From Candidatus Parcubacteria bacterium (GTDB taxonomy: Bacteria; Patescibacteriota; Minisyncoccia; Phycocordibacterales; UBA2100): a stretch of DNA of 52,159 nucleotides. The translations under genes and the position numbers were made by a program. Below, piece after piece: positions 3,993-40,955 of this stretch; the first letter of the stretch is position 1, and each line of letters begins with the position of its first letter. The stretch is taken from assembly GCA_003599175.1 (NCBI GenBank), contig QZIY01000020.1, forward strand, positions 1 to 52,159, in the 5' to 3' direction. Under the pieces are notes generated by a model that worked only from the letters and a program-made list of their open reading frames with translations, was not told the DNA's origin and searched no databases.

Positions 3993-3996
3993 GCAC

Positions 3997-5810: not shown

Positions 5811-5811
5811 T

Positions 5812-6867: not shown

Positions 6868-6893
6868 TTACTATATAATATAATGCGCGCACC

Positions 6894-8917: not shown

Positions 8918-8920
8918 TCT

Positions 8921-12435: not shown

Positions 12436-12438
12436 GCT

Positions 12439-13434: not shown

Positions 13435-13439
13435 CACAT

Positions 13440-14594
13440 ATGGCAATGCAAAGAAAACTGCGGATCGCACTCATTTACAGCGGGCGCTTTCCTGGTGAAA
13501 AGGCGGGAGCGCTTTTTGCCGCTAAAAGTGCGGAGGCGTTTGCAGAGCAGGGTGTCGAGGTGACACTCATTGTACCGAAGCGGCGCGATAGCATGAAGCA
13601 GACACCACAGCAGGTATGGGGCGTACCTGATTCCTTTGCCGTGCGTTTGTTGCCCGTCGTGAACCTCTTTCCCGTACGCTTCTTTGCACCAATTGCTTTT
13701 TTTGTAGCGCTCATCACGTATGTGCCGGTCGTTTTTCTCTATCTTCTCTTCAGCAGGCGTTCATTCGATCTCATCTACTCAAACGAGGCATACCCTTTGC
13801 TTGCGGCATCATTCCTTGCTCCATGTGTGTATGAACTCCACGATTTTCCACGACGAACGCTCTTTCTCTATCGCATCCTGTTCCGTCGCTTGCTGCTTAT
13901 CGTATCGACCAATGAATGGAAAAAACAACAACTCATCGAACGCTTTGGCGTCCCTGCGGAGCGCATCCTTGTTGAGCGCAATGCCGTCGATCTTGCCATA
14001 AATGATGTATCAAAAGAGACGGCGCGCACTCACCTCGGTCTGGAGGGTGATAGGTTCTATGTTGTATACACGGGCCAACTCTATAGCTGGAAAGGTACCG
14101 ACACACTGGCCGCGACCGCGACATTTCTTCCGAATGCGGTCATCGTGTTTGTGGGTGGCTTGGGACATGACCTTGAACGCTTCAAGGCACGGTGGGGACA
14201 GCAAAAAAATATTCGCATTGTTGGGCAGGTACCGCATGGCGAAGTTGTCTATTGGCAAAAGGCGGCCGACGTGCTTGTTATTCCGAATACGGCAAAAGAA
14301 GCTATTTCCGAGTTTTATACATCGCCAATGAAACTGTTCGAGTACATGGCTGCTGAGCGGCCGATTATTGCTTCTGACATTCCTTCCATCCGCGAGGTCT
14401 TGGGAGACGAGATGGCATACTTTGCAGAGCCCGATAATGCGAGTTCGTTTGCTTCGGCGATCACCGGAGCACTCGATAACCCGATGGGAGCGATAAAAAA
14501 AGCACGCTTAGCACGCGCGAATGTAGTGGCACATACCTGGCAAAAACGCTCTGCGCGTATTCTGGATGCTATACGATATGCTACAGACGGGTAA
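13440..14594 (+). CDS. Glycosyltransferase family 4
   Basis: YTGQLYSWKG and SPMKLFEYMA. Confidence 0.9.
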   Translation: MAMQRKLRIALIYSGRFPGEKAGALFAAKSAEAFAEQGVEVTLIVPKRRDSMKQTPQQVWGVPDSFAVRLLPVVNLFPVRFFAPIAFFVALITYVPVVFLYLLFSRRSFDLIYSNEAYPLLAASFLAPCVYELHDFPRRTLFLYRILFRRLLLIVSTNEWKKQQLIERFGVPAERILVERNAVDLAINDVSKETARTHLGLEGDRFYVVYTGQLYSWKGTDTLAATATFLPNAVIVFVGGLGHDLERFKARWGQQKNIRIVGQVPHGEVVYWQKAADVLVIPNTAKEAISEFYTSPMKLFEYMAAERPIIASDIPSIREVLGDEMAYFAEPDNASSFASAITGALDNPMGAIKKARLARANVVAHTWQKRSARILDAIRYATDG

Positions 14595-14630
14595 TTTCTC
14601 AAAGTTGTTAGCCGTGCTATGTTGCGAGAC

Positions 14631-15824
14631 ATGAAATCACAGGCTTCCCGGCGCCGTGTATCCGCACAAAAGCCATACCTTACCTTTGGCGCGCCCGATA
14701 TTGGAAAAGAAGAAATAGGTGCCGTTACGTCTGTCTTGCGATCTAGCTGGCTTGGCACGGGCCCAAAGACACATGATTTCGAGCATCTCGTCGGTAAGTA
14801 TACGGGGGCACAAGCTGCTTGCGCGCTCAATTCCGCAACCGCGGCTCTCCACCTTTCACTCGTCGGCCTTGGTATCGGAGCAGGCGATGAGGTGATTACG
14901 ACACCGCTTACCTTCTGTGCGAGCGCAAATGCGATCATCCATGCAGGAGCGACCCCGGTTTTCGTCGATGTCGAACGCGACTCCATGAACATCGATCCTA
15001 CAAAAATCGAGAAAGCGATCACGAAGAAAACCAAGGCGATATTGCCCGTCCATATGGCGGGGCGTCCCTGCAACATGGAGGCGATCAAGAAACTTGCCAG
15101 GAAGCACAAACTCTTCGTCATTGAAGATGCGGCGCATGCGCTTGGCGCTTCATACAAGGGCAAGAAGATCGGATCTCTCAGCGATGCGACCTGCTTTAGT
15201 TTTTATGTCACCAAAAATATTATCACTGGTGAAGGAGGCATGATTACAACCAATGATAAGCAATTTGCGGATCGCGTGCGCATTTTGTCGCTTCACGGCA
15301 TGTCGAAAGACGCTTGGAAGCGTTACAGTGCATCTGGCTACTCACACTATGAAGTTGTCGTACCCGGATTCAAATACAACCTCACCGATCTTGCTTCGGC
15401 AATCGGTATCGAACAAATGAAAAAGATCTCGCGATTCAACGCACGGCGGAAAAAGATTTGGGACATCTACTCCAAGGCATTTAAAGATTTGCCGGTGGTG
15501 CTCCCTGCGCCGATTCCCGCTGACATCGAGCATGCGCGACATCTCTATACGCTCTTGATCGATGAAAAGACCACGGGCCTTTCACGCGACGCCTTCATGC
15601 AGGCCTTGCATGAACGTGGAGTGGGGAGTGGTGTGCACTTCCGACCGGTTCATCTGCATGCATACTACCGCGAGCACTTCGGCTACAAAGAGGGTGATTT
15701 TCCACATGCGGAGTATATTGGCGAGCGAACCGTCTCCATTCCGTTTTCTTCTGCGCTTACCGACAGAGAAGTCTCGCGCGTGATCAAAGCAGTTCGAGAG
15801 GTTATCGAAGAACACCATGGCTAA
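14631..15824 (+). CDS. DegT/DnrJ/EryC1/StrS sugar aminotransferase
   Basis: NSATAALHL, EDAAHALG, SFYVTKNIITGEGG (PLP lysine). Start placed 7 nt after TATGTT. Confidence 0.92.
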   Translation: MKSQASRRRVSAQKPYLTFGAPDIGKEEIGAVTSVLRSSWLGTGPKTHDFEHLVGKYTGAQAACALNSATAALHLSLVGLGIGAGDEVITTPLTFCASANAIIHAGATPVFVDVERDSMNIDPTKIEKAITKKTKAILPVHMAGRPCNMEAIKKLARKHKLFVIEDAAHALGASYKGKKIGSLSDATCFSFYVTKNIITGEGGMITTNDKQFADRVRILSLHGMSKDAWKRYSASGYSHYEVVVPGFKYNLTDLASAIGIEQMKKISRFNARRKKIWDIYSKAFKDLPVVLPAPIPADIEHARHLYTLLIDEKTTGLSRDAFMQALHERGVGSGVHFRPVHLHAYYREHFGYKEGDFPHAEYIGERTVSIPFSSALTDREVSRVIKAVREVIEEHHG

Positions 15825-16578
15825 CACGTACGCACTGAGTGGGAAACATATTCTTATTACGGGTGCCAACGGCCAACTTGGCAGTGGCCTCGCTGCTCGT
15901 TTTACACAAGAAGGCGCCATCGTGCATGTGTCCGATATACAGGAGATAATCACGCCAGATCTTGCAAAGGCACTCACTGCTCTCGGTGCCTCCTTCACCT
16001 ATCACAAGCTCGACATCTCCAAGGAATCCGATATCAAAAAAGTTGTCGACGAACTCCCGGCACTGAACGTACTCGTCAACAATGCGGGCATTGCCGTGTT
16101 CACACCTTTTGAAGAACGCACGCCGGAGGAACTTGATGCGGTGATGGATGTAAATATAAAAGGCACCATTCTTACGGCCAAAATATGTGCGGCGAAGATG
16201 ACGGGAAAAGACGGGAAAATTATCAATATCGGATCAATCTATGGCGTCGTGCCGGGTGACAAGCGCATCTATGGCGACTCGGGCCGCAACACCTCAGAAA
16301 TTTACGCTGCGACGAAGGCGGGTGTGATTCATCTCACCAAATACCTGGCTGCCTATCTTGCCGACAAGGGTATTACCGTCAATGCGGTTTCGCCGGGCGG
16401 CATTTTCAGTAATCAAAAAGATTTTTTTGTCGCCGAATACACCAACAAAACACCCCTCAAGCGGATGGCATCGGTCGACGATATCGCAAACGCCGTACTC
16501 TTTCTCGCCTCGAGTGATGCCGGCTATATCACCGGTCAAAACCTTGTTGTCGACGGCGGCTTTTCACTCAATCAATAG
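15817..16578 (+). CDS. SDR oxidoreductase (PtmA-like)
   Basis: TGANGQLG, NNAG, GSIYG, YAATK, VNAVSPGG. Confidence 0.85.
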   Translation: MANTYALSGKHILITGANGQLGSGLAARFTQEGAIVHVSDIQEIITPDLAKALTALGASFTYHKLDISKESDIKKVVDELPALNVLVNNAGIAVFTPFEERTPEELDAVMDVNIKGTILTAKICAAKMTGKDGKIINIGSIYGVVPGDKRIYGDSGRNTSEIYAATKAGVIHLTKYLAAYLADKGITVNAVSPGGIFSNQKDFFVAEYTNKTPLKRMASVDDIANAVLFLASSDAGYITGQNLVVDGGFSLNQ

Positions 16579-16579
16579 T

Positions 16580-17407
16580 ATGTCGCTCGCAACACTCGGG
16601 ATCGGAAAAGGAAAAACATTTATCATCGCCGAAGTCGGTATCAATCACAATGGAGATTTCAAAAAAGCGGTCAAGCTGATCGACGAAGCGAAAAAAGCAG
16701 GCGCGGACGCGGTGAAGTTTCAGACCTATGTCACCGAAAAACGTGTTCCAAAAGATAGTCCAATCTACGGCATTTTGAAGCAATGCGAACTCTCGCAGGA
16801 GGATCAACGAAGGCTCAAAATACATGCGGATAAAAAAGGAATCCTCTTCTTCTCGACTCCCTTTGATGAAGAGAGCGTCACCTTTCTCAAAGATCTCAAT
16901 GTGCCGCTTCTCAAGATTGCGTCCTTTGATATCGTAAATCACAAGCTTCTTCGCGCGTGCGCGAAAACTAAGATCCCGATGATTATCTCGCGCGGCATGG
17001 CCTCACAATCGGAAATCGCTACTGCTGCCTCAATCTGCAAAAAGGTGGGCACCGAATTCGCGCTCTTGCACTGCGTTTCTGCCTATCCGGCACCCAAAAC
17101 ATCGGTGAATCTTCGCGCGATCGACGCTCTCAAAGCACAATACAAAGTCCCCGTCGGCTTTTCTGATCACACACTCGACATTGATGCATGCGTCTATGCG
17201 GTTGCCCGCGGCGCAGAGGTTTTGGAAAAGCACTTCACGCTTAATCGCAGAATGAAAGGGCCTGACCACCGGCTCTCGGCAGATCCGAAGATGCTCGCGC
17301 AGTTGGTGCAGCGTGTCCGAGAAGTAGAGGGGATGTTGGGCCGAGGTAAACTCGTGTCACTCCCTGTGGAGGCCGGTACTCGACAATATCGCCGCAAGAG
17401 TGTATGA
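16580..17407 (+). CDS. neuB: NeuB-family nonulosonic acid synthase lacking the C-terminal SAF domain
   Basis: IAEVGINHNG, AVKFQTY, STPFD, KIASFD, HCVSAYP, GFSDHT, EKHFT. Only 275 aa. Confidence 0.88.
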   Translation: MSLATLGIGKGKTFIIAEVGINHNGDFKKAVKLIDEAKKAGADAVKFQTYVTEKRVPKDSPIYGILKQCELSQEDQRRLKIHADKKGILFFSTPFDEESVTFLKDLNVPLLKIASFDIVNHKLLRACAKTKIPMIISRGMASQSEIATAASICKKVGTEFALLHCVSAYPAPKTSVNLRAIDALKAQYKVPVGFSDHTLDIDACVYAVARGAEVLEKHFTLNRRMKGPDHRLSADPKMLAQLVQRVREVEGMLGRGKLVSLPVEAGTRQYRRKSV

Positions 17408-18180
17408 AGTTTCAAATCGCGACGCCGCTCTCGACGATTTTTCAGAAGGCTTCTGTCGAAGAAAAAGATCGCATCATCGAACTCTCTGATGTTTTTGAAT
17501 ATCGTCACGGCATCGAAAGCGGTGTCGCTTCTGACAAGCCCCGCATCTATCACGCCGAGGAGAGCATCGTCGATCCCTGGAGTGATGCGGAGCTTGCAGA
17601 AATGAGCGACCGATTTTCGCGGGAGCACATCAAGTTCGTGACCTTCCACGTACCCACCTGCTACACGAAACCACCGATCAAGGATGGCTCGTACGTGCTA
17701 GGCGGTCGCGCGATGAGCGCAGATGAAATGCGAGCGAACGCGAAACAGAATGTGGAGCGCATGCGATCTGTCGGCGCACGCATCCCGATGGGCGCCGAGA
17801 ACAACAATTACTTCCCGACCGGCGCGTATGAAATCGTGACAGAGCCAGAATTTCTGACTGCCATCATGGAAGACAGCGGTTTCTCCTGGCTCCTCGATAT
17901 TGCACATGCGGAAATTACGGCGAAGCACACCAACGTGTCATTAGACGAGTATCTTTCAAAAATCGGTCTTGAACGCGTGGTACAGCTTCACTTGAGCGGC
18001 ATTACACGTACGCCGGAAGGGTATAAAGATTCGCATGGTCCCATGGCGGCGATCGACTGGGAGAACTTCGAGAAAATCGCAAAACAGTGCCACAACTTAC
18101 AGTATGTTACTCTCGAATACTACAAAGAACCAAGCGTCTTATTGCCGATGCTGGAGCGTCTCCATACGTATCAATCATGA
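17404..18180 (+). CDS. TIM-barrel metalloenzyme, DUF692/xylose-isomerase-like
   Basis: Ordered putative metal ligands FH, AENN, LLDIAH, LHLSG, DSH, TLEY. Confidence 0.6.
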   Translation: MKFQIATPLSTIFQKASVEEKDRIIELSDVFEYRHGIESGVASDKPRIYHAEESIVDPWSDAELAEMSDRFSREHIKFVTFHVPTCYTKPPIKDGSYVLGGRAMSADEMRANAKQNVERMRSVGARIPMGAENNNYFPTGAYEIVTEPEFLTAIMEDSGFSWLLDIAHAEITAKHTNVSLDEYLSKIGLERVVQLHLSGITRTPEGYKDSHGPMAAIDWENFEKIAKQCHNLQYVTLEYYKEPSVLLPMLERLHTYQS

Positions 18181-18905
18181 AAAAGCAATCGATCATCGAG
18201 TATCTTCCGTGGGACAGCGATTTCTTCAAGAAAAAAATCGCACGACTTTCACGCACATCGATAACCAAGCGACACATGAAGGAAGCAATCGCTGCAGCAA
18301 AAAAAGGAAACATCGAATGTCTCTACGCAACACTTGAAGCTGATGATCAGCGACATATCGAACTCGCAGAACAAAACGGTTTAGCACTTGTGGGGACGCG
18401 GGTAACGTACGCCTTCTCTGGTAAACTTCCCACCGCCAAATCTTCCGATGTCAGCATACGCGAGGGAACGGATGCCGATCGAGAAGATCTCTTGCGCCTC
18501 GCGGCGATCTTGAGTAGGGAAAGCCGCTTCGCGCGCGATCCGCACTTCGGTGCGACTGTTGCGAAGCGCTTGTATCGCACATGGATCGAAAAGCTTCTCT
18601 TTGATTCGTCGCCGCGCACAAGCGTACTCGTCGCCACGGTGAAAGGAAAGTTCGCCGGATTCATCGCCTCAAGCGTCCATGATGGCATGGCACATATCGA
18701 ACTTATCATCGTCGACGGCGCCTTTCGTGGCAAAGGAATCGGGAAACTCCTCATCGCTCAGAGCACCGCCCTGTATCGAAAACAAGGATTCACACAGATG
18801 CGCGTCTCCACCCAAGGCAGTAACATCGCAGCGCAGTCGCTCTACCAGTCGTGCGGTTTCCGTATCGCACGGATGGCGCTCGATTATCATAAGTGGTTCG
18901 TATGA
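18177..18905 (+). CDS. GNAT acetyltransferase (WecD/RffC-like)
   Basis: LPWDSDFF N-terminus, SRFARD, RGKGIG, TQGSNIAAQSLYQSCGF. Confidence 0.85.
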   Translation: MKKQSIIEYLPWDSDFFKKKIARLSRTSITKRHMKEAIAAAKKGNIECLYATLEADDQRHIELAEQNGLALVGTRVTYAFSGKLPTAKSSDVSIREGTDADREDLLRLAAILSRESRFARDPHFGATVAKRLYRTWIEKLLFDSSPRTSVLVATVKGKFAGFIASSVHDGMAHIELIIVDGAFRGKGIGKLLIAQSTALYRKQGFTQMRVSTQGSNIAAQSLYQSCGFRIARMALDYHKWFV

Positions 18906-19672
18906 GCACTATGGCGATCGTTCAGGCGCGCATGCAATCATCCCGTCTGCCAGGGAAGATTTTGTTACCACTTTCAGAAGAAAAAACGACACTCGAGTGC
19001 ATGCTCGATCGCGTGAAGCAGAGCGAGGAAATAGACCAGGTGGTCGTTGCCGTGAGCGATACTGAGGCAGATGCGCCGCTCCACCGCTTCCTCGAAAGAA
19101 TCGGACAGCCCTATGCTGTCGGAAGTGAAAACGATGTTTTGGACCGCTACTGGAGCGCAGCGAAAAAGTTTGCACATGTGGGAAGCACAATTGTGCGCCT
19201 TACATCGGATTGTCCGGTCATTGACCCCAAGGTTATCGACCGCGTGATTCGTTTCTACCAAGAAGGCCATTATGACTTTGTATCAAATTCGCTTGAACCC
19301 TATTCCTGGCCCGATGGTATGGATACCGAAGTATTTTCCTGCGAGCTTCTTGAACGTGCGGCAAAGGAAGCGACAAAGCCCTCGCATCGCGAGCATGTCA
19401 CGTTTTATTTCTGGCAGAACCCTGGCCTCTTCAAGATCGGCTACTTCAAAAACAGCTCCAACCAGTCCTCCTATCGGCTCACGCTTGATTACCCCGGGGA
19501 TTACGAAGTCTTGCGACGTATCCACAAGCATTTTGCTCCGCGTACCGATTTCACCGTTGCGGAGATTATTTCCTTTCTCGATGCCAATCCGGACGTTCGC
19601 GAGATGAATAGTGAGGCGGTCCGCAACGCTGGCTGGCAGAGCGCGCTCAAAAAAGATAGTATCCAAAAATAA
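18902..19672 (+). CDS. spsF: SpsF-like cytidylyltransferase
   Basis: QARMQSSRLPGK, GSENDVLDRY, VRLTSDCP, HREHVT, RLTLDY. Confidence 0.85.
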   Translation: MSTMAIVQARMQSSRLPGKILLPLSEEKTTLECMLDRVKQSEEIDQVVVAVSDTEADAPLHRFLERIGQPYAVGSENDVLDRYWSAAKKFAHVGSTIVRLTSDCPVIDPKVIDRVIRFYQEGHYDFVSNSLEPYSWPDGMDTEVFSCELLERAAKEATKPSHREHVTFYFWQNPGLFKIGYFKNSSNQSSYRLTLDYPGDYEVLRRIHKHFAPRTDFTVAEIISFLDANPDVREMNSEAVRNAGWQSALKKDSIQK

Positions 19673-19678
19673 GCGTCT

Positions 19679-21019
19679 ATGAAAAAGGGGGAGATCAAGC
19701 TGACCAAGAATGGTACCGGCCAAAAGCTTTGGCGCAAGGCAAAAAAACTCATTCCCGGCGGCAACCAACTCCTTTCAAAGCGTATTGAGCGCTTCCTGCC
19801 GGAATACTGGCCTGCGTATCATGGCAGGGGAAAAGGGGCAGAGGTGTCGGATCTCGATGGCAACCGGTATCTCGACATGTGCATTATGGGCATCGGGACG
19901 CTCACGCTTGGCTACGCCGACCCTGATGTCGATCGCGCGGTGATCCAAACGATCAAAGGAGGATCTATGGGCACGTTGAATTCCCCGCAGGAGATTGAGC
20001 TTGCGGAGCTCCTGATAAAGCTTCATCCATGGGCACAGATGGTGCGTTATGCGCGAAGCGGAGGAGAATCCATGGCAATCGCGGCACGTATCGCGCGTGC
20101 ATATAGCGGCAAAGAAAAAATCGCATTCTGCGGCTACCACGGCTGGGCCGATTGGTACCTCGCAGCAAATCTTTCGAAGAAGGATGGGCTCGACGAGCAC
20201 CTGATGCGGGGTCTTGAGCCAAAAGGTGTGCCGCATGGACTGAAGGGCACTATTTTACCCTTTCGTTACAATCATTTTGAAGAACTAGAAAAGATTCTCA
20301 AAGAAAACGAGGGTGAGATCGCTGCGGTCATCATGGAGCCGGTGCACGGCGAAGAACCAACCGACGATTTCCTGAAAAAAATCCGCAACGTCACCAAGGA
20401 GCTCAGTATCCCCTTAGTGTTCGATGAAATCACGATGGGTTTTCGCCTCACCATGGGTGGCGCGCACCTCTTGTATGGCATCGAGCCGGACATGGCGATC
20501 TTTGCCAAAGGAATGAGCAATGGTTATCCAATGGCGGCGATCCTTGGTCGCGAGGAGATTATGCAGGCAGCGCAAGACACGTTTATCTCGAGCACGTACT
20601 GGACGGAAGCCATTGGCCCTACGGCGGCGCTTGCCACGATCAAGAAAATGAAAGACAAAAAAGTCCACAAGCACCTGCGGACTATCGGTGTTCTGGTGCG
20701 AGATGCGTGGCAGAGCGCATCGAAAAAACACGGCATCGAGATCGGCTTCAGTGGCCCTTTGTCGTTGCAGTTCTTCGCGTTTAAGGGGAAGGACGCAGGG
20801 GCATTGAAAACGCTCTTCGTGCAGGAGATGTTGCGCCGCGGTTTTCTTGCGTCGGATCTTTTTTATGCTTCGTACGCACACACCCCCGCGCACGTGAAAA
20901 AATACGCGGCAGCGATCGATGAAGTATTCGGTATCCTCAAGGAAGCACTCAATACTAACACCGTTGAAAAACGGCTCCTCGGCCCGATCGCCCGCGCTGG
21001 ATTCGAACGGCTCAATTAA
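19679..21019 (+). CDS. Class III aminotransferase (glutamate-1-semialdehyde aminomutase-like)
   Basis: DLDGNRYLD, GYHGW, FDEITMGFR, FAKGMSNG. Confidence 0.88.
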   Translation: MKKGEIKLTKNGTGQKLWRKAKKLIPGGNQLLSKRIERFLPEYWPAYHGRGKGAEVSDLDGNRYLDMCIMGIGTLTLGYADPDVDRAVIQTIKGGSMGTLNSPQEIELAELLIKLHPWAQMVRYARSGGESMAIAARIARAYSGKEKIAFCGYHGWADWYLAANLSKKDGLDEHLMRGLEPKGVPHGLKGTILPFRYNHFEELEKILKENEGEIAAVIMEPVHGEEPTDDFLKKIRNVTKELSIPLVFDEITMGFRLTMGGAHLLYGIEPDMAIFAKGMSNGYPMAAILGREEIMQAAQDTFISSTYWTEAIGPTAALATIKKMKDKKVHKHLRTIGVLVRDAWQSASKKHGIEIGFSGPLSLQFFAFKGKDAGALKTLFVQEMLRRGFLASDLFYASYAHTPAHVKKYAAAIDEVFGILKEALNTNTVEKRLLGPIARAGFERLN

Positions 21020-21020
21020 C

Positions 21021-21368
21021 ATGGCAGGGGTGGGCATTGATATTGTTGAAGTTGCGCGGTTTCGCTCTCTTTGCACAAAAAAGGGTCGGACGAGCCAATT
21101 CGTTCATCGCGTGTTTAGCGATGAAGAACAATCATACTGCTTTGCGTTCAAAGACCCGGCACCGCATCTTGCCGGTATGTTTGCAGCGAAAGAAGCAATA
21201 CAAAAAGCGCTCGATCAATTCACTACCCCGCTCACGCAAGTAGAAGTGAGGCACAAAAAAAGTGGAAAACCAGAAATCTGGCTTCGCGGCAAACGGGCGA
21301 AGCATATTTTGATTTCCATATCGCACACTAAAAGTACCGCCTGTGCAGCTGCGTTTGCGACACGATAG
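21021..21368 (+). CDS. acpS: Holo-[acyl-carrier-protein] synthase
   Basis: GVGIDIVE, FAAKEA, GKP, ISISH. Confidence 0.92.
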   Translation: MAGVGIDIVEVARFRSLCTKKGRTSQFVHRVFSDEEQSYCFAFKDPAPHLAGMFAAKEAIQKALDQFTTPLTQVEVRHKKSGKPEIWLRGKRAKHILISISHTKSTACAAAFATR

Positions 21369-21372
21369 GATC

Positions 21373-22056
21373 TTACAGCGAGACGATTGTTTCTTGGGGG
21401 AGACGAATCAACGAACCTGACGGATACGAAGTACTGTCATTGCAAAGCCTTAAAATAATTGCTGCCACTTCCTCGGGCGTTGTCACCTGATCTGGCATTT
21501 TTGATTGCAAAAAAGTTGTCACTTTTTCGGGAAGATCACGATTCAAGCCACCAGACATGAATCCCGGCGCAACCGCATAGACGTTCCAGTCCTTTTCTTC
21601 GTGCGACAGCGTTTTTAGAAGTCCCTCAAGACCAGACTTGGCGGCTGCGTATGCGCCCACCGGTCCCGCATACTGGTGTGCTGCCTCGGATGTAATCCCG
21701 ATAAATGCCCCGCTTTTTCTCAGGTGTGGACGAATGGCTTTTGCAAGAAGATATGCACCGCGAGTCGCGGTTGCCATTGTAGAGTCGAATTGTTCAGCTG
21801 AAAGCGAAAGGAGCGGTACCCGATTAAGTTTTGGAGAGGCAGCATGTACGCATGCATCGACTCGTCCGTACCGAGCGATGATCTCGGCAATCGCGTCCTG
21901 TACCGATTGTTCGTTCGTTACATCGCAGTGAACACTGGGGTCTTGTGCGTTTAACGAGAGAGAAACAACATGCCACGCGCGCGCCTTAAAGAGGGTGCTG
22001 ATTGCGTTCCCGAGATATCCACTCCCTCCGGTAACGATAAGTACAGGTTCACTCAT
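21373..22056 (-). CDS. SDR ketoreductase (FabG-like)
   Basis: TGGSGYLG, YAAAK, VAPG. Confidence 0.82.
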   Translation of the reverse strand: MSEPVLIVTGGSGYLGNAISTLFKARAWHVVSLSLNAQDPSVHCDVTNEQSVQDAIAEIIARYGRVDACVHAASPKLNRVPLLSLSAEQFDSTMATATRGAYLLAKAIRPHLRKSGAFIGITSEAAHQYAGPVGAYAAAKSGLEGLLKTLSHEEKDWNVYAVAPGFMSGGLNRDLPEKVTTFLQSKMPDQVTTPEEVAAIILRLCNDSTSYPSGSLIRLPQETIVSL

Positions 22057-22481
22057 ACGATTGTACGCACCTGGGAATGTACGACACCGGTAGCAACGAC
22101 ACGATCGCCGACACGCACGGTGATATCGATTGCAACAATGTTCGCCGACGTGCTTATGCTTGTCACGGCTCCGTCCACTTGAACGGTATCTCCGATGAAT
22201 ACCGGCTGTTTGAATTCAAGCGTTTCCTTCATCAAAAGCGCGTGTTTCCCCGGAAGCTGCATCCCGATGAGCTGCGAGACGAGTGCACCGAGAAAGAAAC
22301 CGTGTACGACACGTTTGCCAAACGGCGTATCAGTGGCGTAGGCGTCATCGACGTGGAGCGGATTCATATCGCCGCTCAGCGCGGCAAACGCGTCGATATC
22401 GGCTGCAGCCACAGTGCGCGTCAGACGTGCTGTATCGCCGATGCGAATATCATCCAGGGTGAGTTCTTGAACGCCCGTCAT
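22053..22481 (-). CDS. MaoC-family (hot-dog) dehydratase
   Basis: FAALSGDMNPLH, HGFF, FKQPVFIGD. Confidence 0.92.
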   Translation of the reverse strand: MTGVQELTLDDIRIGDTARLTRTVAAADIDAFAALSGDMNPLHVDDAYATDTPFGKRVVHGFFLGALVSQLIGMQLPGKHALLMKETLEFKQPVFIGDTVQVDGAVTSISTSANIVAIDITVRVGDRVVATGVVHSQVRTIV

Positions 22482-22708
22482 AGCTCTATGCCTTTTTTAC
22501 GGAGCGCTCCCATGACATCGCCCAGGGACTGCATCGAAAGTACCTCCTGCATGTCGAAGACAACGCCATATTCTTTTTCAAGGTCTGCGATAAAGAGCAA
22601 GTAATTCATGGAATCCCACTCCGGTACATCCTTTGGCGTTAACTCTGGTCGGATGTCAGCCGCCGGAATCTTGAGTTGTTCGGTTACTATTATTTCGAAT
22701 GATTTCAT
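22478..22708 (-). CDS. Acyl carrier protein
   Basis: 76 aa and acidic, with WDSM phosphopantetheine motif and LEKEYGV. Confidence 0.88.
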   Translation of the reverse strand: MKSFEIIVTEQLKIPAADIRPELTPKDVPEWDSMNYLLFIADLEKEYGVVFDMQEVLSMQSLGDVMGALRKKGIEL

Positions 22709-23739
22709 ACGAGTGTGACCCATGATGGCATGACAGCGGCATCGACCGCTACCGTATTCCCCGTAAAATTCTTTTCGATAAATATTTTAGCCGGCATATT
22801 TTTTTCGGTTGGCGTGAAGATGATGTCGAGGGTTTCGGCTCCTTCCGCGCGAGCACTTTCTGCGATCGCGGCAAGAAACGCTTCTTCGACGCCTCGGCCA
22901 ATGACACGGCAGGAAAGGAGCAGTGATTCAATGTGCCAAACCGGCGCGAGCTTTTGCACGAGCGCAAATGCGGTAATGCCGTAATCGCCGAATTTGTCGG
23001 TGACACGTGCACACAAGACAGCGTAATGCGGGTCACGAATAAACGCATCGATCTCCTCGACGGTGAGTGGTTTTTTGTTGGTATTGAACTGATTTGTTTT
23101 TTCGGTGAGTTGCGAAAGTCGCGCCACTTGGGCGGACGCATCTTTCAGAATTTCAACACGAAATCCAAGGCTTTTGAGAAATGCATCTCGATCAGTGAAT
23201 TGTTTTTCCGCCTCGCGGCGCAATCGTTCCGTCACGTACATATTGCCGCGCATTTTGTCTTCGTCGGTGATGACGTTGGCTTCGAAATAGGGGAGTGTAT
23301 GCAAAAACTGTGCATATTCTCTCGGATCCACCGGCAACTCCGGCGTCTCTACCTCAGGTACGAATTGTCGCATCGCGGCGCGGTTTTCTGGATTGTCGTC
23401 GAGGAAAACCATCGAGTCGAGACCAATGTTGAGTTCTTGGGCGATTGAGCGAATGTTTTCGGTCTTATCTGACCAATTGATGCGCATGGCTGCGAAATGG
23501 TTGCGTTTCAAAATCATGTTGGGATTAGCATCGATCACTTCCAAAGCGTCGCTTTCGTTGTTCGCACTCGCGATCGCCAGAATGATGCCGCGGTGATTGA
23601 GGTCGAGGAGTGCCTGCTGAAATGCGACGAAGTACGCCCCCGGTGGTGTGAGGCCAAGTGCTATGCCACGGGGACCATCTTCTCCAACAACCCCGCCCCA
23701 GAGCGTGTTGTCGAGATCAAGGACGATGCATTTTTTCAT
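22705..23739 (-). CDS. FkbH-like HAD-IIIC phosphatase / glyceryl transferase
   Basis: LDLDNTLWGGVVGEDG, FLDDNP, KTNQFN, DKFGDYG, LLSCRVIGR (conserved Cys). Confidence 0.92.
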   Translation of the reverse strand: MKKCIVLDLDNTLWGGVVGEDGPRGIALGLTPPGAYFVAFQQALLDLNHRGIILAIASANNESDALEVIDANPNMILKRNHFAAMRINWSDKTENIRSIAQELNIGLDSMVFLDDNPENRAAMRQFVPEVETPELPVDPREYAQFLHTLPYFEANVITDEDKMRGNMYVTERLRREAEKQFTDRDAFLKSLGFRVEILKDASAQVARLSQLTEKTNQFNTNKKPLTVEEIDAFIRDPHYAVLCARVTDKFGDYGITAFALVQKLAPVWHIESLLLSCRVIGRGVEEAFLAAIAESARAEGAETLDIIFTPTEKNMPAKIFIEKNFTGNTVAVDAAVMPSWVTLV

Positions 23740-23793
23740 AGGGACTCGTACAGTATCGTTATACTACTTGAATTTACTCGCCCGCTCAACGAA

Positions 23794-24606
23794 CTACACA
23801 TTGCCTCGCAACTTGTCGATCGAGTGCTGTGCGAGGAGGAAGTACGGGTCTTCATCTAAAAGTCGCATGGCGATGTCATACAGGTCGGCAGCGCGCACCA
23901 CCTTAATGGTGCCGTTTCCGAACGTTTTCTCGTGGAGCGCGTGCGAGGCGCGCAGGTGTGGTTCGATTTTTTGCATCTCGTTGTCTACCTCTTGCTCGAG
24001 TGGTCGTGCGAAATACGTGCACCAATCCTTTCGCGTCTCATTGCCCTCGATAATGCTGCCCGTAAACGTTTTAAGGAATCGATAGGGGACTTTGTGCATT
24101 TGTTCGACATGAATGAGAAACGTGCAGTATTCAAAATCGACGCCGAACATAACGATTTTCGCATTGAGTTTGCGAAGATTGTCGAAGACGGATCCTTTGC
24201 CAAAGGTGTCCTTGCTTATGGTGAGTACCTCGTTCGTACGCTTGCCCCATGCGGCGATAGAGTGCATTGGCTGCAAAGAGCGCTTCACGCCGGGTTGCTG
24301 CCTAAAAAATTCGGACAGTGACCCGACGGTCGATCGGCTCTTTTGAACATCGAACGCTTCGCCTTTCCCCCAGCTAAAGCTGAAGGCGGGGAAGGTGACC
24401 GTACCGTCTTCGCCAACACTTTCTTTAAACGTCTCAATGAGCGCCGACAAAAAAGTATCTTTGTTTGGCGTTGCCAACTTACCGAACACTGCGATATCGG
24501 AGTGGATAAACAGCATATCGCCTTCTGCAACGCCGACTTCGCGCAAGGCGCGTAGCAAATCACTGTCAGTGAGATCTTCCTCATCGCACGTATAGAGAAG
24601 GGTCAT
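23794..24606 (-). CDS. AAC(3)/YokD-family N-acyltransferase
   Basis: FIHSD, PAFS, GSLSEFFR, RSLQPMHS, TFLIHVEQ, VPYR. Confidence 0.88.
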   Translation of the reverse strand: MTLLYTCDEEDLTDSDLLRALREVGVAEGDMLFIHSDIAVFGKLATPNKDTFLSALIETFKESVGEDGTVTFPAFSFSWGKGEAFDVQKSRSTVGSLSEFFRQQPGVKRSLQPMHSIAAWGKRTNEVLTISKDTFGKGSVFDNLRKLNAKIVMFGVDFEYCTFLIHVEQMHKVPYRFLKTFTGSIIEGNETRKDWCTYFARPLEQEVDNEMQKIEPHLRASHALHEKTFGNGTIKVVRAADLYDIAMRLLDEDPYFLLAQHSIDKLRGNV

Positions 24607-24728
24607 ATTTTTATTAAAGAGACTACGCCCGAACGGCAGAAAACTCAAGCTGATCAGGAGCATAGTACAAAAATGTTCGCCATAATGGCGAATGGCGGGA
24701 AGGCGTGGGGCACGCTATAGTAGCACCC

Positions 24729-26530: not shown

Positions 26531-26857
26531 ATGGATCTTGCGATGTCACTCGGTTGGCTTGCCACGTTTCTTTTTACAATCTGCTATGTGCCGCAGATTA
26601 TCAAGACTGTGAAAACACAGTCGGTGAGCGGTCTTAGTTTTTGGCTTCTTTTTATACAATTCATCGCCAACATAGTCGCATTTTGTTATGCAACGCTCAT
26701 CGCGCAGCCCCCGCTTCAAATCAAGTATATACTCGCGCTCTTTTTTCTTCTGATATGTATGGGCGTATATATTCGTGTGTATCGAAAAAATCCACCGCAG
26801 CGACAAATCTCATCGGCAGAATCGCTTCCCGATGCACCCGATCAAGTGGCCCTCTAA
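26531..26857 (+). CDS. PQ-loop / SemiSWEET-like small transporter
   Basis: YVPQIIKT...SGLS motif with three hydrophobic helices. Confidence 0.8.
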   Translation: MDLAMSLGWLATFLFTICYVPQIIKTVKTQSVSGLSFWLLFIQFIANIVAFCYATLIAQPPLQIKYILALFFLLICMGVYIRVYRKNPPQRQISSAESLPDAPDQVAL

Positions 26858-27390
26858 ATCAGTTTCTTCGCTCGCATTTCAGTCCAGAGCTTTTCGATAC
26901 TTTTATGCACGCTTGTTTCAGCCGAAATTCTGATATCTGGTCGCTCCGGTCGCTCGTACGGGCGATTGTCGCTCATACCGATGATCTCCATCTCACCCCT
27001 TTTCCCTTTTGCGTACAATCCCTTCACGTCGCGCTCGATACAAATGGAAAGCGGTGTATCTACAAAAACTTCAATATATTGATCACCTAAAAGAGCTCTC
27101 GAGTTTGCGCGATCTTCCGCATAAGGTGAAATCGCTGAAACAAGCACGAAATCATTGTCCGCGCTTTGTTTGAGTGCAAGTTCTGCGAGAAGGCGATTAT
27201 TCTTGCGTATATCGTCGCGCGAGAATCCGAGCGGTGTTGCATGTTTTTCACGGACATCATCGCCGTCGACGAGGCTAACGATTTTACGCGACGCTTCCAG
27301 TCGCGTTTTGAGCGCGCGGGCGAGCGTGGTTTTACCTGAACCAGACAGACCAGTGAACCACAAGATCCGACTCATAGTTTTATTCGACAA
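26854..27390 (-). CDS. cysC: Adenylyl-sulfate kinase
   Basis: WFTGLSGSGKTT, DGDDVR, ISPY, RDVKGLY, YERP. Confidence 0.92.
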   Translation of the reverse strand: MSNKTMSRILWFTGLSGSGKTTLARALKTRLEASRKIVSLVDGDDVREKHATPLGFSRDDIRKNNRLLAELALKQSADNDFVLVSAISPYAEDRANSRALLGDQYIEVFVDTPLSICIERDVKGLYAKGKRGEMEIIGMSDNRPYERPERPDIRISAETSVHKSIEKLWTEMRAKKLI

Positions 27391-29638
27391 ATACTTTTTT
27401 GCCGCGCTTGATCATGTCGATGATTGCTGAGGAAATTTCCGGACGCATAAACCATGCAGGTGGTTTTTTACCTGCAAGAAGCATCGCACGTACTTGTGTG
27501 CCACTGATGTTCAGTTTTTCGCTTTCTTTGTGTCTTAATCGCTGTTCGCCTTCGTGAATATGTTTTTTTTCCTTGGACGAATAAAATACTTGATTGAAAC
27601 GCACTGGAGATATATTGAGGTCGGGAAAACGATCGAAAATTTCGTGCGCTGCTGCCGGAGGATAGAACGACCCGATACCTGTATGATCTCGTCCGACGAT
27701 AAAATGACTGCAGCCGAAATTTTGACGGCACAGAGCAGTAAAAAGTGCTTCGCGCGGACCAGCGTAGCGTGAATAACTCGCGAAGGTCCCGAGTATAGCG
27801 CGTCCTTTGGGGTAGAATTGTTCACTCATGAGTGCATACGCAGCGATGATGGCCTCGGCCTCAAAATCACCTTTTTTCTTTTTGCCAATAACAGGATGAA
27901 TAAAAAGTCCATCTGCCGAAGAACGGCGAAGCGCTTCGAGCTGAATAAATTCGTGCCCACGATGAATTGCGTTCCTCGTGTGAAATGCAACGATCCGTGA
28001 CCATCCTCGTTCTGCAAATAAGCGTCGTGTCTGCCGCGGCGTGAGCTCGTATTTTTTGGTCGGCGAATCATATCGTCTGTAGAGTGTCACCGTGCCGCCT
28101 AAAAAGACAGGCCTCATCGCCAGTACCATGGCGACACCCGGGTGTGAGGGGTCAGTTGTCCCGTACACATGCTGCGCGAAATCTTTTTTATCGTACGCAT
28201 ATTTTTCTTTCAGATGGAGCACGGCTACAACGGTTCCTTTCTTGTTTTTGAGCGCGATATCAGATCCTTCTGTAAGACGCGCCGCTTCTTCGGTACTGAC
28301 ATCAAGTACAATCGGCATCGGCCATATGGCACCGCTTGGCATCCGCATATGCTTGAGCACAGAATCCAATTCTTTGTGCGTAAGAAAACCTTCGAGCGGA
28401 CTGAAGGTGCCGATGGCGATTTGCTCAATATCCATATGCTGTTCATCGGTAATCTGTATCGATTGCAATTTCCCATCGGGGGTGAGACCAAATGCAGCTT
28501 GCCGATCCACAAGCGTGCCACCATTAGGGGGAATGAGCATCTCGCCCGGATTACTGGTATGCAGATAGTTTGCCTTGTCGAGTGTGACGACGTATCGAGG
28601 ACGTGGTCGCGCATCTTCTGGCACGCTCTCTGCTTGATGAATCAATTTATTCAGCGTGTTAACCACCTCAATCGGATAGTCGCCGATCGCTGTTTCCGCT
28701 GCAAGTGTAACGCCGAAGGCGCCATCGAGGATCGTCTGCACCGTGTCATGTACCTCGGCGCGCGTAGGACTTTGTTTATGTACCATTGACTCAAGAAAAT
28801 TCGTCGCGACGAAGACTCCCTTGTTTTTTTTGCGCGCTCGGTCGATGATGATTTTTTGCGCAAAGGGGATTTTCTCGATCGGTACCTCGCGGCTCAAATC
28901 GCCGCGGTCGATCAGAAGGTAGTCAGATTTTTCTATGATCGCATCGAGTTGCTCGAGTGCTTCTGTGCACTCGATCTTCGAAATGATTTTCATGCGGCTC
29001 TTTGTCCGCTTTCGCACGAGATCCACTGCTTCTGGCGATCGCACGAACGAAACAGCAATGTGATCGACGCCTTCTTTGAGCGCTATTGCGATCGCATCTT
29101 CGTCTTTTGGTGAGAGTGTCGGAAGTTCAAAATTTTTTTTGGATGCCGTGTCGATGACAACACCTTTGTTGGCTCCCATGATGCCACCGGATAGTACCGT
29201 TGATACCACATACCCCTTCTGTGCGAGCATCGAAGTCTCGGTCACGCGCAGGACTACAGAATTGAAATCGATATATACGAGATCACCTTCAGCCAACTGT
29301 GGTACGATGGATTCAGGTTTGAGACAGATGCGTGTACTGTTGCCCCGAATCTGCTTTTGATAAATTTTGATCCTCGCGCCTTCCTCTAAGCGGATCTCGC
29401 CTCGTTCGTTTGCCCCGTTGCGCACCTGCGACCCTTCAGTATCCAATATGAAAGGTATGCCTACGTCGCGCGCAAGTTTCATAAAATAACCCTGATCTGC
29501 AATGCTTGAGTGCGACATATTGACACGCACGAAACCGACGCCCCGGTCTTTGAGCGCACGTAGATGATCTTTGGTATGAGTCGATGGCCCCAGCGTCACC
29601 ACGATCTTGGTTTTCTTGGGAGTCGGTCTGATTTTCAT
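27380..29638 (-). CDS. Pyruvate kinase catalytic domain fused to sulfate adenylyltransferase (Sat)
   Basis: N-terminal PK motifs KTKIVVTLGP, RVNMSH, DTEG, SKIE, RGDL, PTRAE, ETAIGDYP. C-terminal Sat motifs FSPLEGF, FHTRNAIHRGHE, RYAGPREA, IVGRDH, ISGTQVR. Confidence 0.9.
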   Translation of the reverse strand: MKIRPTPKKTKIVVTLGPSTHTKDHLRALKDRGVGFVRVNMSHSSIADQGYFMKLARDVGIPFILDTEGSQVRNGANERGEIRLEEGARIKIYQKQIRGNSTRICLKPESIVPQLAEGDLVYIDFNSVVLRVTETSMLAQKGYVVSTVLSGGIMGANKGVVIDTASKKNFELPTLSPKDEDAIAIALKEGVDHIAVSFVRSPEAVDLVRKRTKSRMKIISKIECTEALEQLDAIIEKSDYLLIDRGDLSREVPIEKIPFAQKIIIDRARKKNKGVFVATNFLESMVHKQSPTRAEVHDTVQTILDGAFGVTLAAETAIGDYPIEVVNTLNKLIHQAESVPEDARPRPRYVVTLDKANYLHTSNPGEMLIPPNGGTLVDRQAAFGLTPDGKLQSIQITDEQHMDIEQIAIGTFSPLEGFLTHKELDSVLKHMRMPSGAIWPMPIVLDVSTEEAARLTEGSDIALKNKKGTVVAVLHLKEKYAYDKKDFAQHVYGTTDPSHPGVAMVLAMRPVFLGGTVTLYRRYDSPTKKYELTPRQTRRLFAERGWSRIVAFHTRNAIHRGHEFIQLEALRRSSADGLFIHPVIGKKKKGDFEAEAIIAAYALMSEQFYPKGRAILGTFASYSRYAGPREALFTALCRQNFGCSHFIVGRDHTGIGSFYPPAAAHEIFDRFPDLNISPVRFNQVFYSSKEKKHIHEGEQRLRHKESEKLNISGTQVRAMLLAGKKPPAWFMRPEISSAIIDMIKRGKKVFVE

Positions 29639-29730
29639 ACGAGATGCATGAAGGGGAGGTTTTTGTCCCGGACATCGAGGAATATACTATTATTGGAGAC
29701 ACGCGTCTACGGTATGATACAGTCCCGTGT

Positions 29731-30585
29731 ATGCGCCGCCTCATTTTTTTTCACCTTGCGAAAACGGGAGGAATCACCCTGCGACGTATCGCTGAGCGCC
29801 ACCTTCCCGAGGGTTACGCGTTCTACAATCTCTCGCTCAATCAAGCCGACAGCAAGGAGCTTGAGGAATTTCGAGCGCTACCCGAAACTAAAAAAGAGAA
29901 GATTGCCGTCCTTGCAGGCCACATGCCTTTTGGCATGGATAAAGAGTTGAGCGGGCCGTCAGATTACATCACGATGCTCCGAAACCCGCTCGACATCGTC
30001 GTATCGGAGTATTATTACCTGCACAACAGTCCGCTTAAAGATTGGCACCGCGCGATCGCGGATTTCAAGGCGATGAGTCTCGGTGATTTCGCACGGAGCG
30101 GATTCAATATAACGACGAACCATCAGACGCGCGTTCTTGCCAGAATATGGTCCACTTTTTTGGAACGATCCGTTCCCGTCGATGAAGCGGCATTTTCACG
30201 GGCGAAAGAATCCCTTCGGCGTGACTTTCTCTGCGTTGGCATCACGGAGCGTTTCGACGAGTCGCTCTTGGTCATGAAAAGGCGGCTCGGGTGGCGTAGT
30301 ATTTATTATTTTAGAGAAAACAAAACGCCGGGACGCAGGCCAACTAAAAGTATCGCACCGGGAGATCGTGATGCTATTCTTGAGCGCAATCATATTGACC
30401 TTGCACTATGGAAGTTTGCGAATGAGCTTTTGGATAAGGAAATCGAAGATTATGGGCCAAATTTTATGCGTGATTTGCGCCATTTTCAGCGGCGTAATTT
30501 TTGGTACCAGAAAGCGCGTCGTGTCGCCCTCTTGGCACGTGGTTTGATGTTCCGCCTTAAGAAACTTACGCACCTGCATGCTTGA
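29731..30585 (+). CDS. Sulfotransferase (Sulfotransfer_2-like)
   Basis: FFHLAKTGG (5'-PSB) and LRNP..VVSEY (3'-PB), plus GITERFDESL. Divergent from the sat/cysC operon. Confidence 0.85.
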   Translation: MRRLIFFHLAKTGGITLRRIAERHLPEGYAFYNLSLNQADSKELEEFRALPETKKEKIAVLAGHMPFGMDKELSGPSDYITMLRNPLDIVVSEYYYLHNSPLKDWHRAIADFKAMSLGDFARSGFNITTNHQTRVLARIWSTFLERSVPVDEAAFSRAKESLRRDFLCVGITERFDESLLVMKRRLGWRSIYYFRENKTPGRRPTKSIAPGDRDAILERNHIDLALWKFANELLDKEIEDYGPNFMRDLRHFQRRNFWYQKARRVALLARGLMFRLKKLTHLHA

Positions 30586-35005: not shown

Positions 35006-35017
35006 AATACTGATTAT

Positions 35018-35719: not shown

Positions 35720-35729
35720 TATCCAGACA

Positions 35730-36878: not shown

Positions 36879-36883
36879 AGATT

Positions 36884-37810: not shown

Positions 37811-37818
37811 CAAAGAGA

Positions 37819-37845
37819 AAGAGGATCGGCAGAGCCGATCCTCTT
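37819..37845. terminator. Hairpin between convergent genes (probable bidirectional terminator)
   Basis: Perfect 12-bp stem aagaggatcggc-aga-gccgatcctctt. Confidence 0.75.
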
Positions 37846-37864
37846 ATGAAATGAACTGATTTTG

Positions 37865-38908: not shown

Positions 38909-39038
38909 CTGCCTCTCCTATCAGGCAGGGAACTCAACTCAATATTTTATACAACATTTTGTATGAAAATCAAATTTTCAGCAAATTACATCATGAACAT
39001 TTGATGATTGAGAAAACGTTTGATACATTTATGTCTCT

Positions 39039-39719: not shown

Positions 39720-39737
39720 AGCGGTAGTGTTCAGACC

Positions 39738-40919: not shown

Positions 40920-40955
40920 CTTTCTTTTTTTTTAGGAGACCGCTAGACTGCCGGT

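Follow-up and report, generated by a model that had tools for sequence, protein, structure and literature searches.

Gene organization of the FkbH cassette

The window, by which we mean the whole stretch of DNA that was analysed (52,159 nucleotides of contig QZIY01000020.1 from a Candidatus Parcubacteria bacterium, assembly GCA_003599175.1), carries a six-gene cassette that encodes an AAC(3)-fold protein, an FkbH-type protein, an acyl carrier protein (ACP), a MaoC-type dehydratase, a FabG-like short-chain dehydrogenase/reductase (SDR), and a holo-ACP synthase (AcpS). As shown in Table 1, five of these genes lie on the minus strand and face acpS, the terminal gene of an amino-sugar/nonulosonate operon. 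The initial annotation of this DNA had described the same layout, with the last four minus-strand genes joined by 4-nt overlaps, and the open reading frames (ORFs) and junctions agreed with that description. The FkbH/ACP, ACP/MaoC, and MaoC/SDR junctions are ATGA overlaps, and 54 nt lie between the AAC(3) stop and the start of FkbH. The stop of a class-III aminotransferase gene precedes the acpS start by 1 nt, and the acpS stop is 4 nt away from that of the convergent SDR gene. The AAC(3) start given in Table 1 agrees with the homologue alignment, and a longer ORF extends to position 24663. On balance, we favour the view that this cassette is a carrier-protein-fed sugar-acylation system, the acyl group of which is probably a three-carbon unit from a glycolysis intermediate.

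Table 1. Cassette genes and other features of the window
Feature	Position	Strand	Match or assignment
AAC(3)-fold protein, 270 aa	23794-24606	minus	PF02522, 2.2e-39, profile positions 2-231 of 232; putative acyl-ACP:amino-sugar N-acyltransferase
Short-form FkbH, 344 aa	22705-23739	minus	TIGR01686, 2.3e-89; HAD-IIIC glyceryl transferase/phosphatase, proposed loader
ACP, 76 aa	22478-22708	minus	PP-binding, 2.2e-4, 21.9 bits (cut-off 20.8)
MaoC-type single hot-dog dehydratase, 142 aa	22053-22481	minus	MaoC_dehydratas, 7.3e-23; proposed glyceryl-ACP dehydratase
FabG-like SDR, 227 aa	21373-22056	minus	adh_short_C2, 3e-33; KR, 8.4e-12; proposed 2-ketoreductase
acpS, holo-ACP synthase, 115 aa	21021-21368	plus	ACPS (Pfam), 1.4e-14; TIGR00556, 1e-18; last gene of the plus-strand sugar operon
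Candidate acceptor pathway 1	14619-21019	plus	PseC-like DegT, SDR, short NeuB, MNIO/DUF692-like protein, WecD-like GNAT, CTP_transf_3, class-III aminotransferase
NeuB 1, 275 aa	16580-17407		No C-terminal SAF domain; below the NeuB/PseI cut-offs
MNIO/DUF692-type protein	17404-18180		Between NeuB and GNAT
WecD-like GNAT	18177-18905		
Candidate acceptor pathway 2	34034-41978	plus	PF01522 deacetylase-like protein, second CTP_transf_3, NeuC-like 2-epimerase, epimerase/dehydratases, second NeuB with SAF domain
PF01522 deacetylase-like protein	34034-35005		Cluster c20
NeuB 2, 340 aa	40956-41978		With SAF domain
Rml-like gene group	7805-13434	plus	RmlB-, RmlA-, and RmlD-like proteins, C-methyltransferase (Methyltransf_14/13), half-length NDP-hexose 2,3-dehydratase (244 aa), GFO reductase
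Sulfation module	26854-30585, 39039-39719		

The window FkbH scored 299.7 bits against TIGR01686, for which the curated cut-off is 146.65, and covered positions 3-316 of the 323 in that profile; its N-terminal half was alignable to PDB 3slr. The LDLDNT (DxDxT) motif at residues 7-12 and the SCR cysteine at residues 275-277 were kept at 80-95% or more in 73 sequences. In FkbH enzymes this conserved cysteine carries the glyceryl-S-enzyme intermediate. In the WDS motif of the ACP, W31 and S33 were invariant and D32 was kept at 90% or more in 35 aligned sequences, and the motif was kept at a level of at least 95% among 53 sequences. The GDxNPxH motif of MaoC was conserved in 28 sequences. The SDR translation carries TGxxxGxG and YxxxK, and its best NCBIfam match was 3-oxoacyl-ACP reductase, with a score far below the cut-off of that model.

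Conservation of the core genes across related loci

An FkbH scan of species-representative genomes gave 184 relatives, from which 80 loci were kept. Together with four loci from the phylum and the window, and after removal of one duplicate contig, 84 distinct loci were compared. Genes were counted with profiles built on the loci's own gene clusters, and SDR homologues were counted by tblastn. FkbH is rare in the phylum, with 5 of the 401 sampled genomes carrying it. The closest FkbH loci all came from metagenome-assembled genomes (MAGs) of the candidate phyla radiation (Patescibacteria), and the cassette was present in archaeal, proteobacterial, Bacteroidota, and Omnitrophota MAGs too.

Read as tendencies, the counts show that 64 of the 84 loci had an ACP no more than 2.5 kb from FkbH, 38 a MaoC within 3 kb, and 33 an AcpS within 5 kb. 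The association was tighter in the window and the 22 loci closest to it, the FkbH proteins of which are 54-65% identical. Of these 23 closest loci, all had an ACP, 22 had an AcpS, and 21 had a MaoC; the two that lack MaoC are contigs shorter than 4 kb. Downstream of MaoC, 20 of the 22 non-window loci in this group had an SDR homologue. The common gene order was AcpS-FkbH-ACP-MaoC-SDR, from which the window departs solely in having acpS on the facing operon. The initial annotation had called for a neighbourhood analysis of the gene set and would have counted a lack of conserved co-occurrence against its reading. The AcpS-FkbH-ACP-MaoC-SDR core was indeed kept in the 23 closest loci, but AAC(3) proved variable, being found in 14 of the 84. 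Since the same gene set recurs in related loci, the arrangement of the cassette is not due to chance.

Where they were called, the FkbH ORFs of the 22 closest non-window loci were 345-383 aa long, which makes the window FkbH a short form; ORFs of about 490-610 aa were common among the more distant loci. FkbH_N (PF21211) gave no match in the 344-aa window protein and was present in the 606-aa form of locus L036. Loci without MaoC and SDR also exist, for example L033, L035, L050, and L061. Those that lack MaoC and SDR and have a methyltransferase and a VOC/epimerase-like gene would be glyceroyl or methylglyceroyl variants. Locus L035, from the cultured Firmicute Aneurinibacillus terranovensis, carries at 11743-13572 the genes of a long FkbH, an ACP, and VOC and DUF4910 proteins, along with an AAC(3)-like match. 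Its neighbours are a Maf-type (PF01973) protein, NeuB, CTP_transf_3, and DegT, and the region is a candidate flagellin glycosylation island.

A private carrier protein in a genome without fatty-acid synthesis

The window is contig 3 of a 40-contig, 0.92-Mb genome that is 88% complete, and this completeness bounds all genome-wide absences reported here. In this genome, no match to ketosynthase (PF00109) was obtained, and FabA/Z and FabD were not found. The ketosynthase, FabA/Z, and FabD searches gave matches in 14, 9, and 10, respectively, of 14 reference genomes used as positive controls. The single PP-binding match of the genome was the cassette ACP, the single ACPS (PF01648) match was the cassette AcpS, and the AAC(3) gene was the only PF02522 gene. 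Furthermore, neither a ketosynthase nor an AMP-binding domain was found among the 46 window ORFs scanned with Pfam; the unscanned ORFs lie mostly beyond 45.6 kb. These results bear out the initial annotation in that the locus has no ketosynthase or adenylation enzyme and that a private AcpS suits a host without fatty-acid synthesis; the check for fab genes that it called for is the one reported above. Since the genome lacks ketosynthase, FabA/Z, and FabD and has its sole ACP and AcpS here, the ACP can serve this cassette alone. That an ACP and an AcpS are kept solely for it, without fatty-acid synthesis, suggests that the sugar decoration matters to the cell.

A hidden polyketide or fatty-acid synthase was rejected on the absence of ketosynthase, FabA/Z, and FabD from the 88%-complete genome. 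A local adenylating loader was likewise rejected. AMP-binding (PF00501) gave two genome-wide matches, both on other contigs with no cassette gene nearby, and the two proteins were 24-30% identical to the ACP-linked loaders of loci L095 and L096.

The transferase is the exchangeable part of the cassette

Three types of transferase accompanied the cassette in the 84 loci. An AAC(3)-fold protein was found in 14 loci, an MBOAT protein in 23, and a GNAT-like protein of 340 aa in 8; the DNA examined for the other 39 contained none of them. The types were never found together (0 overlaps among the 84 loci), and the MBOAT was often accompanied by a 380-aa protein without a Pfam match. The 23 closest loci were divided into 7 with AAC(3), 13 with MBOAT, 1 with the GNAT-like protein, and 2 with none. 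The core of the system is thus AcpS-FkbH-ACP-MaoC-SDR, with the AAC(3)-fold enzyme as one outlet among three. Mutually exclusive transferases would be expected if one acyl-ACP served alternative acceptors.

The AAC(3) gene occupied different positions: it precedes AcpS in L013 and L020, follows SDR in L012 and L016, and in the window precedes FkbH. Since the gene order around AAC(3) varies between loci, its linkage to the cassette appears functional rather than merely inherited. As a tendency, the AAC(3) loci also differed in their other genes. A DUF4910/DUF2172/M28-like protein was encoded in 7 of the 14 AAC(3) loci compared with 0 of the 70 others, and a class-III aminotransferase in 4 of the 14 compared with 1 of the 70. 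NeuB was found in 6 of the 14 AAC(3) loci, 1 of the 23 MBOAT loci, 3 of the 8 GNAT-like loci, and 4 of the 39 others.

The AAC(3)-fold protein and acyl-ACP

Compared with the resistance enzymes, the window AAC(3)-fold protein is distant. Its best NCBIfam score was 80 bits, against the 270 bits of the AAC_3 equivalog, and the subtype models, with cut-offs of 420-675, gave 35-70 bits. Among PDB sequences, it was closest to YokD (2nyg, 6e-12) and FrbF (3sma, 1e-10).

Fused genes connect this family with the carrier-protein enzymes. Of 18 homologues of the window AAC(3), itself excluded, 3 (P0013, P0015, and P0017) combine PF01575 and PF02522 in one protein. A MaoC-AAC(3) fusion of 400 aa lies directly after FkbH and ACP in L036 (4043-5245), and a MaoC-SDR fusion of 560 aa adjoins AAC(3) in L037 (5-1687). 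The L036 and L037 fusion proteins come from Deferribacterales and Desulfobacteraceae MAGs.

A profile of this AAC(3) clade found members in 3 of the 401 phylum genomes, and the two besides the window are without FkbH. In both of these FkbH-less genomes, AAC(3) has AcpS and AMP-binding loader genes no further than about 6 kb from it and an ACP gene about 5-6 kb away, and their AAC(3) loci are flanked by NeuB or PseB/DegT/CTP_transf_3 genes. In L095 (G053:C1), positions 3230-13810 encode, in order, AcpS, ACP, an AMP-binding enzyme, an Fe-alcohol dehydrogenase, a LuxE-like acyl-protein synthetase, a LuxC-like reductase, a VOC protein, a 525-aa AAC(3)-fold protein with an unassigned C-terminal half, a GT2 protein, and NeuB. 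Judged by its gene content, L095 is a different carrier-protein acyl pathway that feeds the same transferase clade.

The AAC(3)-ACP complex was predicted from alignments of 24 AAC(3) and 35 ACP sequences, together with three controls. The median score was 0.63, compared with 0.02 for the best control. Among solved complexes, 58 of 80 attain the score mark applied, whereas mismatched pairs do so in 2 of 110 cases; these counts are approximate here since custom alignments were used. The runs shared at least 97% of the contacts, and the partner pLDDT was 87 or higher. In the predicted interface, ACP residues 32-38, including Ser33, face AAC(3) residues 37-44, which lie just past the conserved HS(D/S) motif. 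We know of no solved complex of an AAC(3)-fold protein with an ACP.

Because three independent lines, namely the MaoC fusions, the retention of ACP, AcpS, and AAC(3) under a swapped loader, and the complex prediction in which the pair beat its controls, point the same way, the ACP is the probable acyl donor of the AAC(3)-fold enzyme. ACP dependence of this protein, as first proposed from the window alone, is thus supported. Overall, those checks named in the initial annotation that are computational turned out in favour of its mechanism.

Proposed route to the acyl group

FkbH enzymes convert 1,3-bisphosphoglycerate to glyceryl-S-ACP, and MaoC-type dehydratases remove the beta-hydroxyl from thioesters. 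It is very likely that the window FkbH loads glycerate onto the ACP; the glyceryl-S-ACP chemistry of FkbH is given in a table entry of PMC7901079. If so, the cassette ACP would first receive phosphopantetheine from AcpS, and FkbH would take 1,3-bisphosphoglycerate and strip its phosphates to give glyceryl-S-ACP. Removal of the beta-hydroxyl, here the 3-hydroxyl, by MaoC would then yield 2-hydroxyacryloyl-S-ACP, the enol of pyruvoyl-S-ACP, to which it would tautomerise, and reduction of the 2-keto group by the FabG-like SDR would give lactyl-S-ACP. The AAC(3)-fold enzyme may dock the ACP at the site where its resistance relatives bind acetyl-coenzyme A (acetyl-CoA) and transfer the acyl group to a nucleotide-linked amino sugar with a free amine, itself a product of genes in this locus. 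The acceptor would most likely be an intermediate or a product of one of the two nonulosonate pathways.

The route from glyceryl through pyruvoyl to lactyl, as put forward in the initial annotation, has a characterised precedent. In FR901464 and lankacidin biosynthesis, dehydratase-ketoreductase (DH-KR) proteins turn glyceryl-S-ACP into lactyl-S-ACP, as summarised in PMC4765723, which cites He et al. 2014; a figure legend in PMC6162330 gives the same conversion with the same citation. Because this DH-KR conversion of glyceryl-ACP is characterised, lactyl is, by analogy, the rather likely product of the window cassette. Both lactoyl and glyceryl are among the prokaryotic nonulosonate modifications listed in PMC8157484.

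Alternative explanations

The cassette could work as proposed and yield a product other than lactyl, such as glyceroyl, pyruvoyl, or, through the class-III aminotransferase acting on pyruvoyl-ACP, alanyl. N-glyceroyl and di-O-methylglyceroyl pseudaminic acids are documented in the relevant passages of PMC5378307 and PMC3068675, and the class-III aminotransferase gene, enriched as it is in AAC(3) loci, abuts acpS. However, MaoC and SDR are co-retained and translationally coupled to the ACP, and a plain glyceroyl donor would need neither of them; the loci that do lack them (L033, L035, L050, and L061) are the natural glyceroyl candidates. For an alanyl product the SDR would be superfluous, and the DH-KR precedent, as summarised in PMC4765723, yields lactyl. 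We consider such a product unlikely. It is quite unlikely, moreover, that the AAC(3)-fold protein is an ordinary acetyl-CoA N-acetyltransferase of the sugar pathway, with the acyl-ACP used by another enzyme, for example the WecD-like GNAT. To our knowledge, every characterised PF02522 member uses acetyl-CoA, and the PDB relatives are named AAC(3), YokD, and FrbF. GNAT folds can also fill the role, as indicated by the 8 loci in which the GNAT-like protein, and not AAC(3), adjoins the cassette. Against such an enzyme stand the MaoC-AAC(3) fusions, the retention of AAC(3) with ACP and AcpS despite the loader swap, the passed ACP-docking prediction, and the finding that AAC(3) never occurs with MBOAT or the GNAT-like protein in the 84 loci. 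Furthermore, the WecD-like GNAT of the window lies outside the cluster of the cassette-linked GNAT-like family.

Transfer of the acyl group to a hydroxyl, giving an O-ester, or to a non-sugar acceptor instead of an amino-sugar amine is very unlikely. The cassette does feed MBOAT, an O-acyltransferase family, in 23 of the 84 loci, and TagF-like glycerophosphotransferases are encoded in the window locus; against this stand the lack of an MBOAT match in the genome and the three aminotransferase-bearing sugar routes in the window. Every characterised PF02522 enzyme known to us N-acylates amines. The PF02522 match (2.2e-39) would also suit an aminoglycoside resistance gene that happens to lie beside an unrelated polyketide remnant. 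This role was rejected on the missed NCBIfam cut-offs and on genomic context, and its probability is close to nil: the protein reaches 80 bits where AAC_3 demands 270 and scores lower still with the subtype models, its relatives in other phyla are also linked to ACP systems and nonulosonate genes, and the genome is without a ketosynthase match.

Several points weigh against the sugar-acylation reading itself. The chemistry of its steps is inferred throughout; what the analysis shows is the gene content, its conservation, the fusions, and a binding prediction that passed. That prediction expresses the confidence of a model rather than a measurement, and it supports binding without proving it. 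The link of AAC(3) to the cassette is facultative, the gene being absent from 70 of the 84 FkbH loci, and NeuB was not seen in the DNA examined for 8 of the 14 AAC(3) loci, several of which are on short contigs. The related loci are kin and several of their contigs are short, so that the counts are tendencies and not statistics. The PP-binding score of the ACP is barely above the Pfam cut-off. MaoC is a single hot-dog protein and the SDR is FabG-like, and both are likened to the DH* and KR* of polyketide synthases (PKSs) by enzyme class only. The WecD-like GNAT of the facing operon could be the real transferase. Moreover, a search of the 88%-complete genome for the C-domain of GAPDH gave no match; phosphoglycerate kinase (PGK), a source of 1,3-bisphosphoglycerate, is present, and the substrate would have to come from PGK run in reverse, unless GAPDH lies within the missing 12%. 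CoaE was not found in the same incomplete genome either, and the CoA for AcpS must then be scavenged, or CoaE unassembled.

Comparison with known systems

The BryA loading module of bryostatin is a proposed case of lactyl-type loading. The cassette resembles the lactyl starter machinery of FR901464 and lankacidin, as far as the latter is described in the sources above, in combining an FkbH-type loader, an ACP, a dehydratase, and a ketoreductase on a glycerate-derived thioester, with lactyl-S-ACP as the expected result. In contrast to that machinery, the window parts are free-standing small proteins and the dehydratase is a MaoC single hot-dog protein. The window genome, unlike these systems and the lactyl starter modules of trans-AT PKSs, has no ketosynthase, and the acyl group is proposed to go onto a sugar amine rather than to prime a polyketide.

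The Dlt pathway, in which the carrier DltC and the MBOAT protein DltB serve the D-alanylation of teichoic acids, is similar in that a small dedicated carrier protein serves a cell-surface polymer, and an MBOAT comes right after the cassette in 23 of the 84 related FkbH loci. A Dlt-like route in the window genome was rejected, since MBOAT (PF03062) gave no match there. The window cassette differs further in having an FkbH loader and not an adenylating enzyme, and a soluble AAC(3)-fold transferase.

AAC(3), YokD, and FrbF share the PF02522 fold family with the window protein. Unlike the AAC(3) resistance enzymes, the latter misses all NCBIfam resistance cut-offs and is linked to a carrier protein, and its proposed donor is acyl-ACP instead of acetyl-CoA. 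FrbF acts on a CMP-linked amine, and by this precedent a nucleotide-linked acceptor would be plausible.

A further likeness is found in Campylobacter. We take Cj1296/7 to be AAC(3)-like and acpP2, acpP3, and fabH2 to lie in the same Campylobacter locus; the candidate counterparts of FkbH, ACP, and AAC(3) there would be cj1302, cj1299/cj1304, and cj1296/7, respectively. The flagellin glycosylation locus of C. jejuni NCTC 11168 contains the FkbH-domain gene cj1302 and the epimerase-annotated cj1301, according to PMC7099621. In the parts of PMC3068675 that concern this locus, Cj1296/7 is listed as an N-acetyltransferase next to Cj1295, and the aminopeptidase-like Cj1295 is required for di-O-methylglyceroyl pseudaminic acid; its authors hypothesised that Cj1295 removes the 5-N-acetyl group so that a new acyl group can be added. 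The Cj1295-Cj1304 region resembles the present loci in having an FkbH gene in a nonulosonate locus and a putative N-acetyltransferase next to an aminopeptidase-like protein; proteins of the latter kind (DUF4910/M28-like) were encoded in 7 of the 14 AAC(3) loci, and methyltransferase and VOC/epimerase-like genes flank FkbH in several related loci. The pairing of DUF4910 with AAC(3) in the loci fits the de-N-acetylation idea for Cj1295. The window differs in having no DUF4910 gene and in adding MaoC, SDR, and its own AcpS, and a Cj1295-type deacetylase in the window genome was rejected on the lack of any DUF4910 (PF16254) match.

The search of the open-access literature found no paper that proposes an FkbH/ACP route to glycan acyl groups; the pseudaminic-related mention of FkbH merely names cj1302. 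As late as 2017, PMC5378307 described the genetics of the N-glyceroyl group in the Tannerella sugar Pse5Am7Gra as a major challenge. The reading offered here is known polyketide starter-unit chemistry newly applied to glycan decoration. Extended further, it would make the clade of AAC(3)-fold proteins carrier-protein-dependent N-acyltransferases. Loaders of the FkbH or adenylating type, with optional MaoC/SDR, methyltransferase, and VOC proteins, would build an acyl group on a private ACP, and AAC(3) would transfer that group to nonulosonic-acid-type sugars. Such a scheme would supply the genetic basis that is missing for the N-glyceroyl, di-O-methylglyceroyl, and N-lactoyl pseudaminic and legionaminic acids, including those of Campylobacter and perhaps Tannerella. 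We advance this broad form tentatively, at slightly less than even odds. If true, it would mean that polyketide starter-unit chemistry is reused for glycans and that an aminoglycoside-resistance fold gains an acyl-ACP-using branch. Unusual N-acyl groups of sialic-acid-like sugars affect phage binding, immunity, and surface charge, and a defined six-gene set with a mass-spectrometric read-out would make the genetics of these groups directly testable.

The acceptor and the surrounding sugar genes

The window contains two nonulosonate gene sets and a dTDP-sugar pathway, and several amines could thus serve as acceptors. The candidates are the 4-amino sugar from the PseC-like DegT, on which the initial annotation proposed to test the AAC(3) protein, the amine from the class-III aminotransferase, and a de-N-acetylated nonulosonate, the last with the PF01522 deacetylase-like protein. 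Because the AAC(3) loci are associated with NeuB, a nonulosonate-pathway amine is favoured among these, at about an even chance. Homologues of the deacetylase-like protein (cluster c20) lie 1-2 genes from FkbH in L011, L045, L047, L049, and L053, and elsewhere in the locus in L010 and L025.

The Rml-like gene group upstream, which also contains a GT4 gene, resembles a branched deoxy sugar route, unexpected for a 0.9-Mb genome. Within the first nonulosonate set, the MNIO/DUF692-type protein weakly matched the MbnB/TglH/ChrH maturases of ribosomally synthesized and post-translationally modified peptides (1.2e-12) and was far below the NCBIfam cut-offs. Downstream of the cassette lie an ABC exporter, a sulfate-activation and sulfotransferase set, TagF-like transferases, and then the second nonulosonate set. 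The sulfation module encodes an APS kinase, a Gal-3-O-sulfotransferase-like protein, and, further on, a protein with a PAPS-reductase domain. It also contains an unusual 752-aa protein in which a pyruvate-kinase barrel is fused to PUA_2 and ATP-sulfurylase domains.

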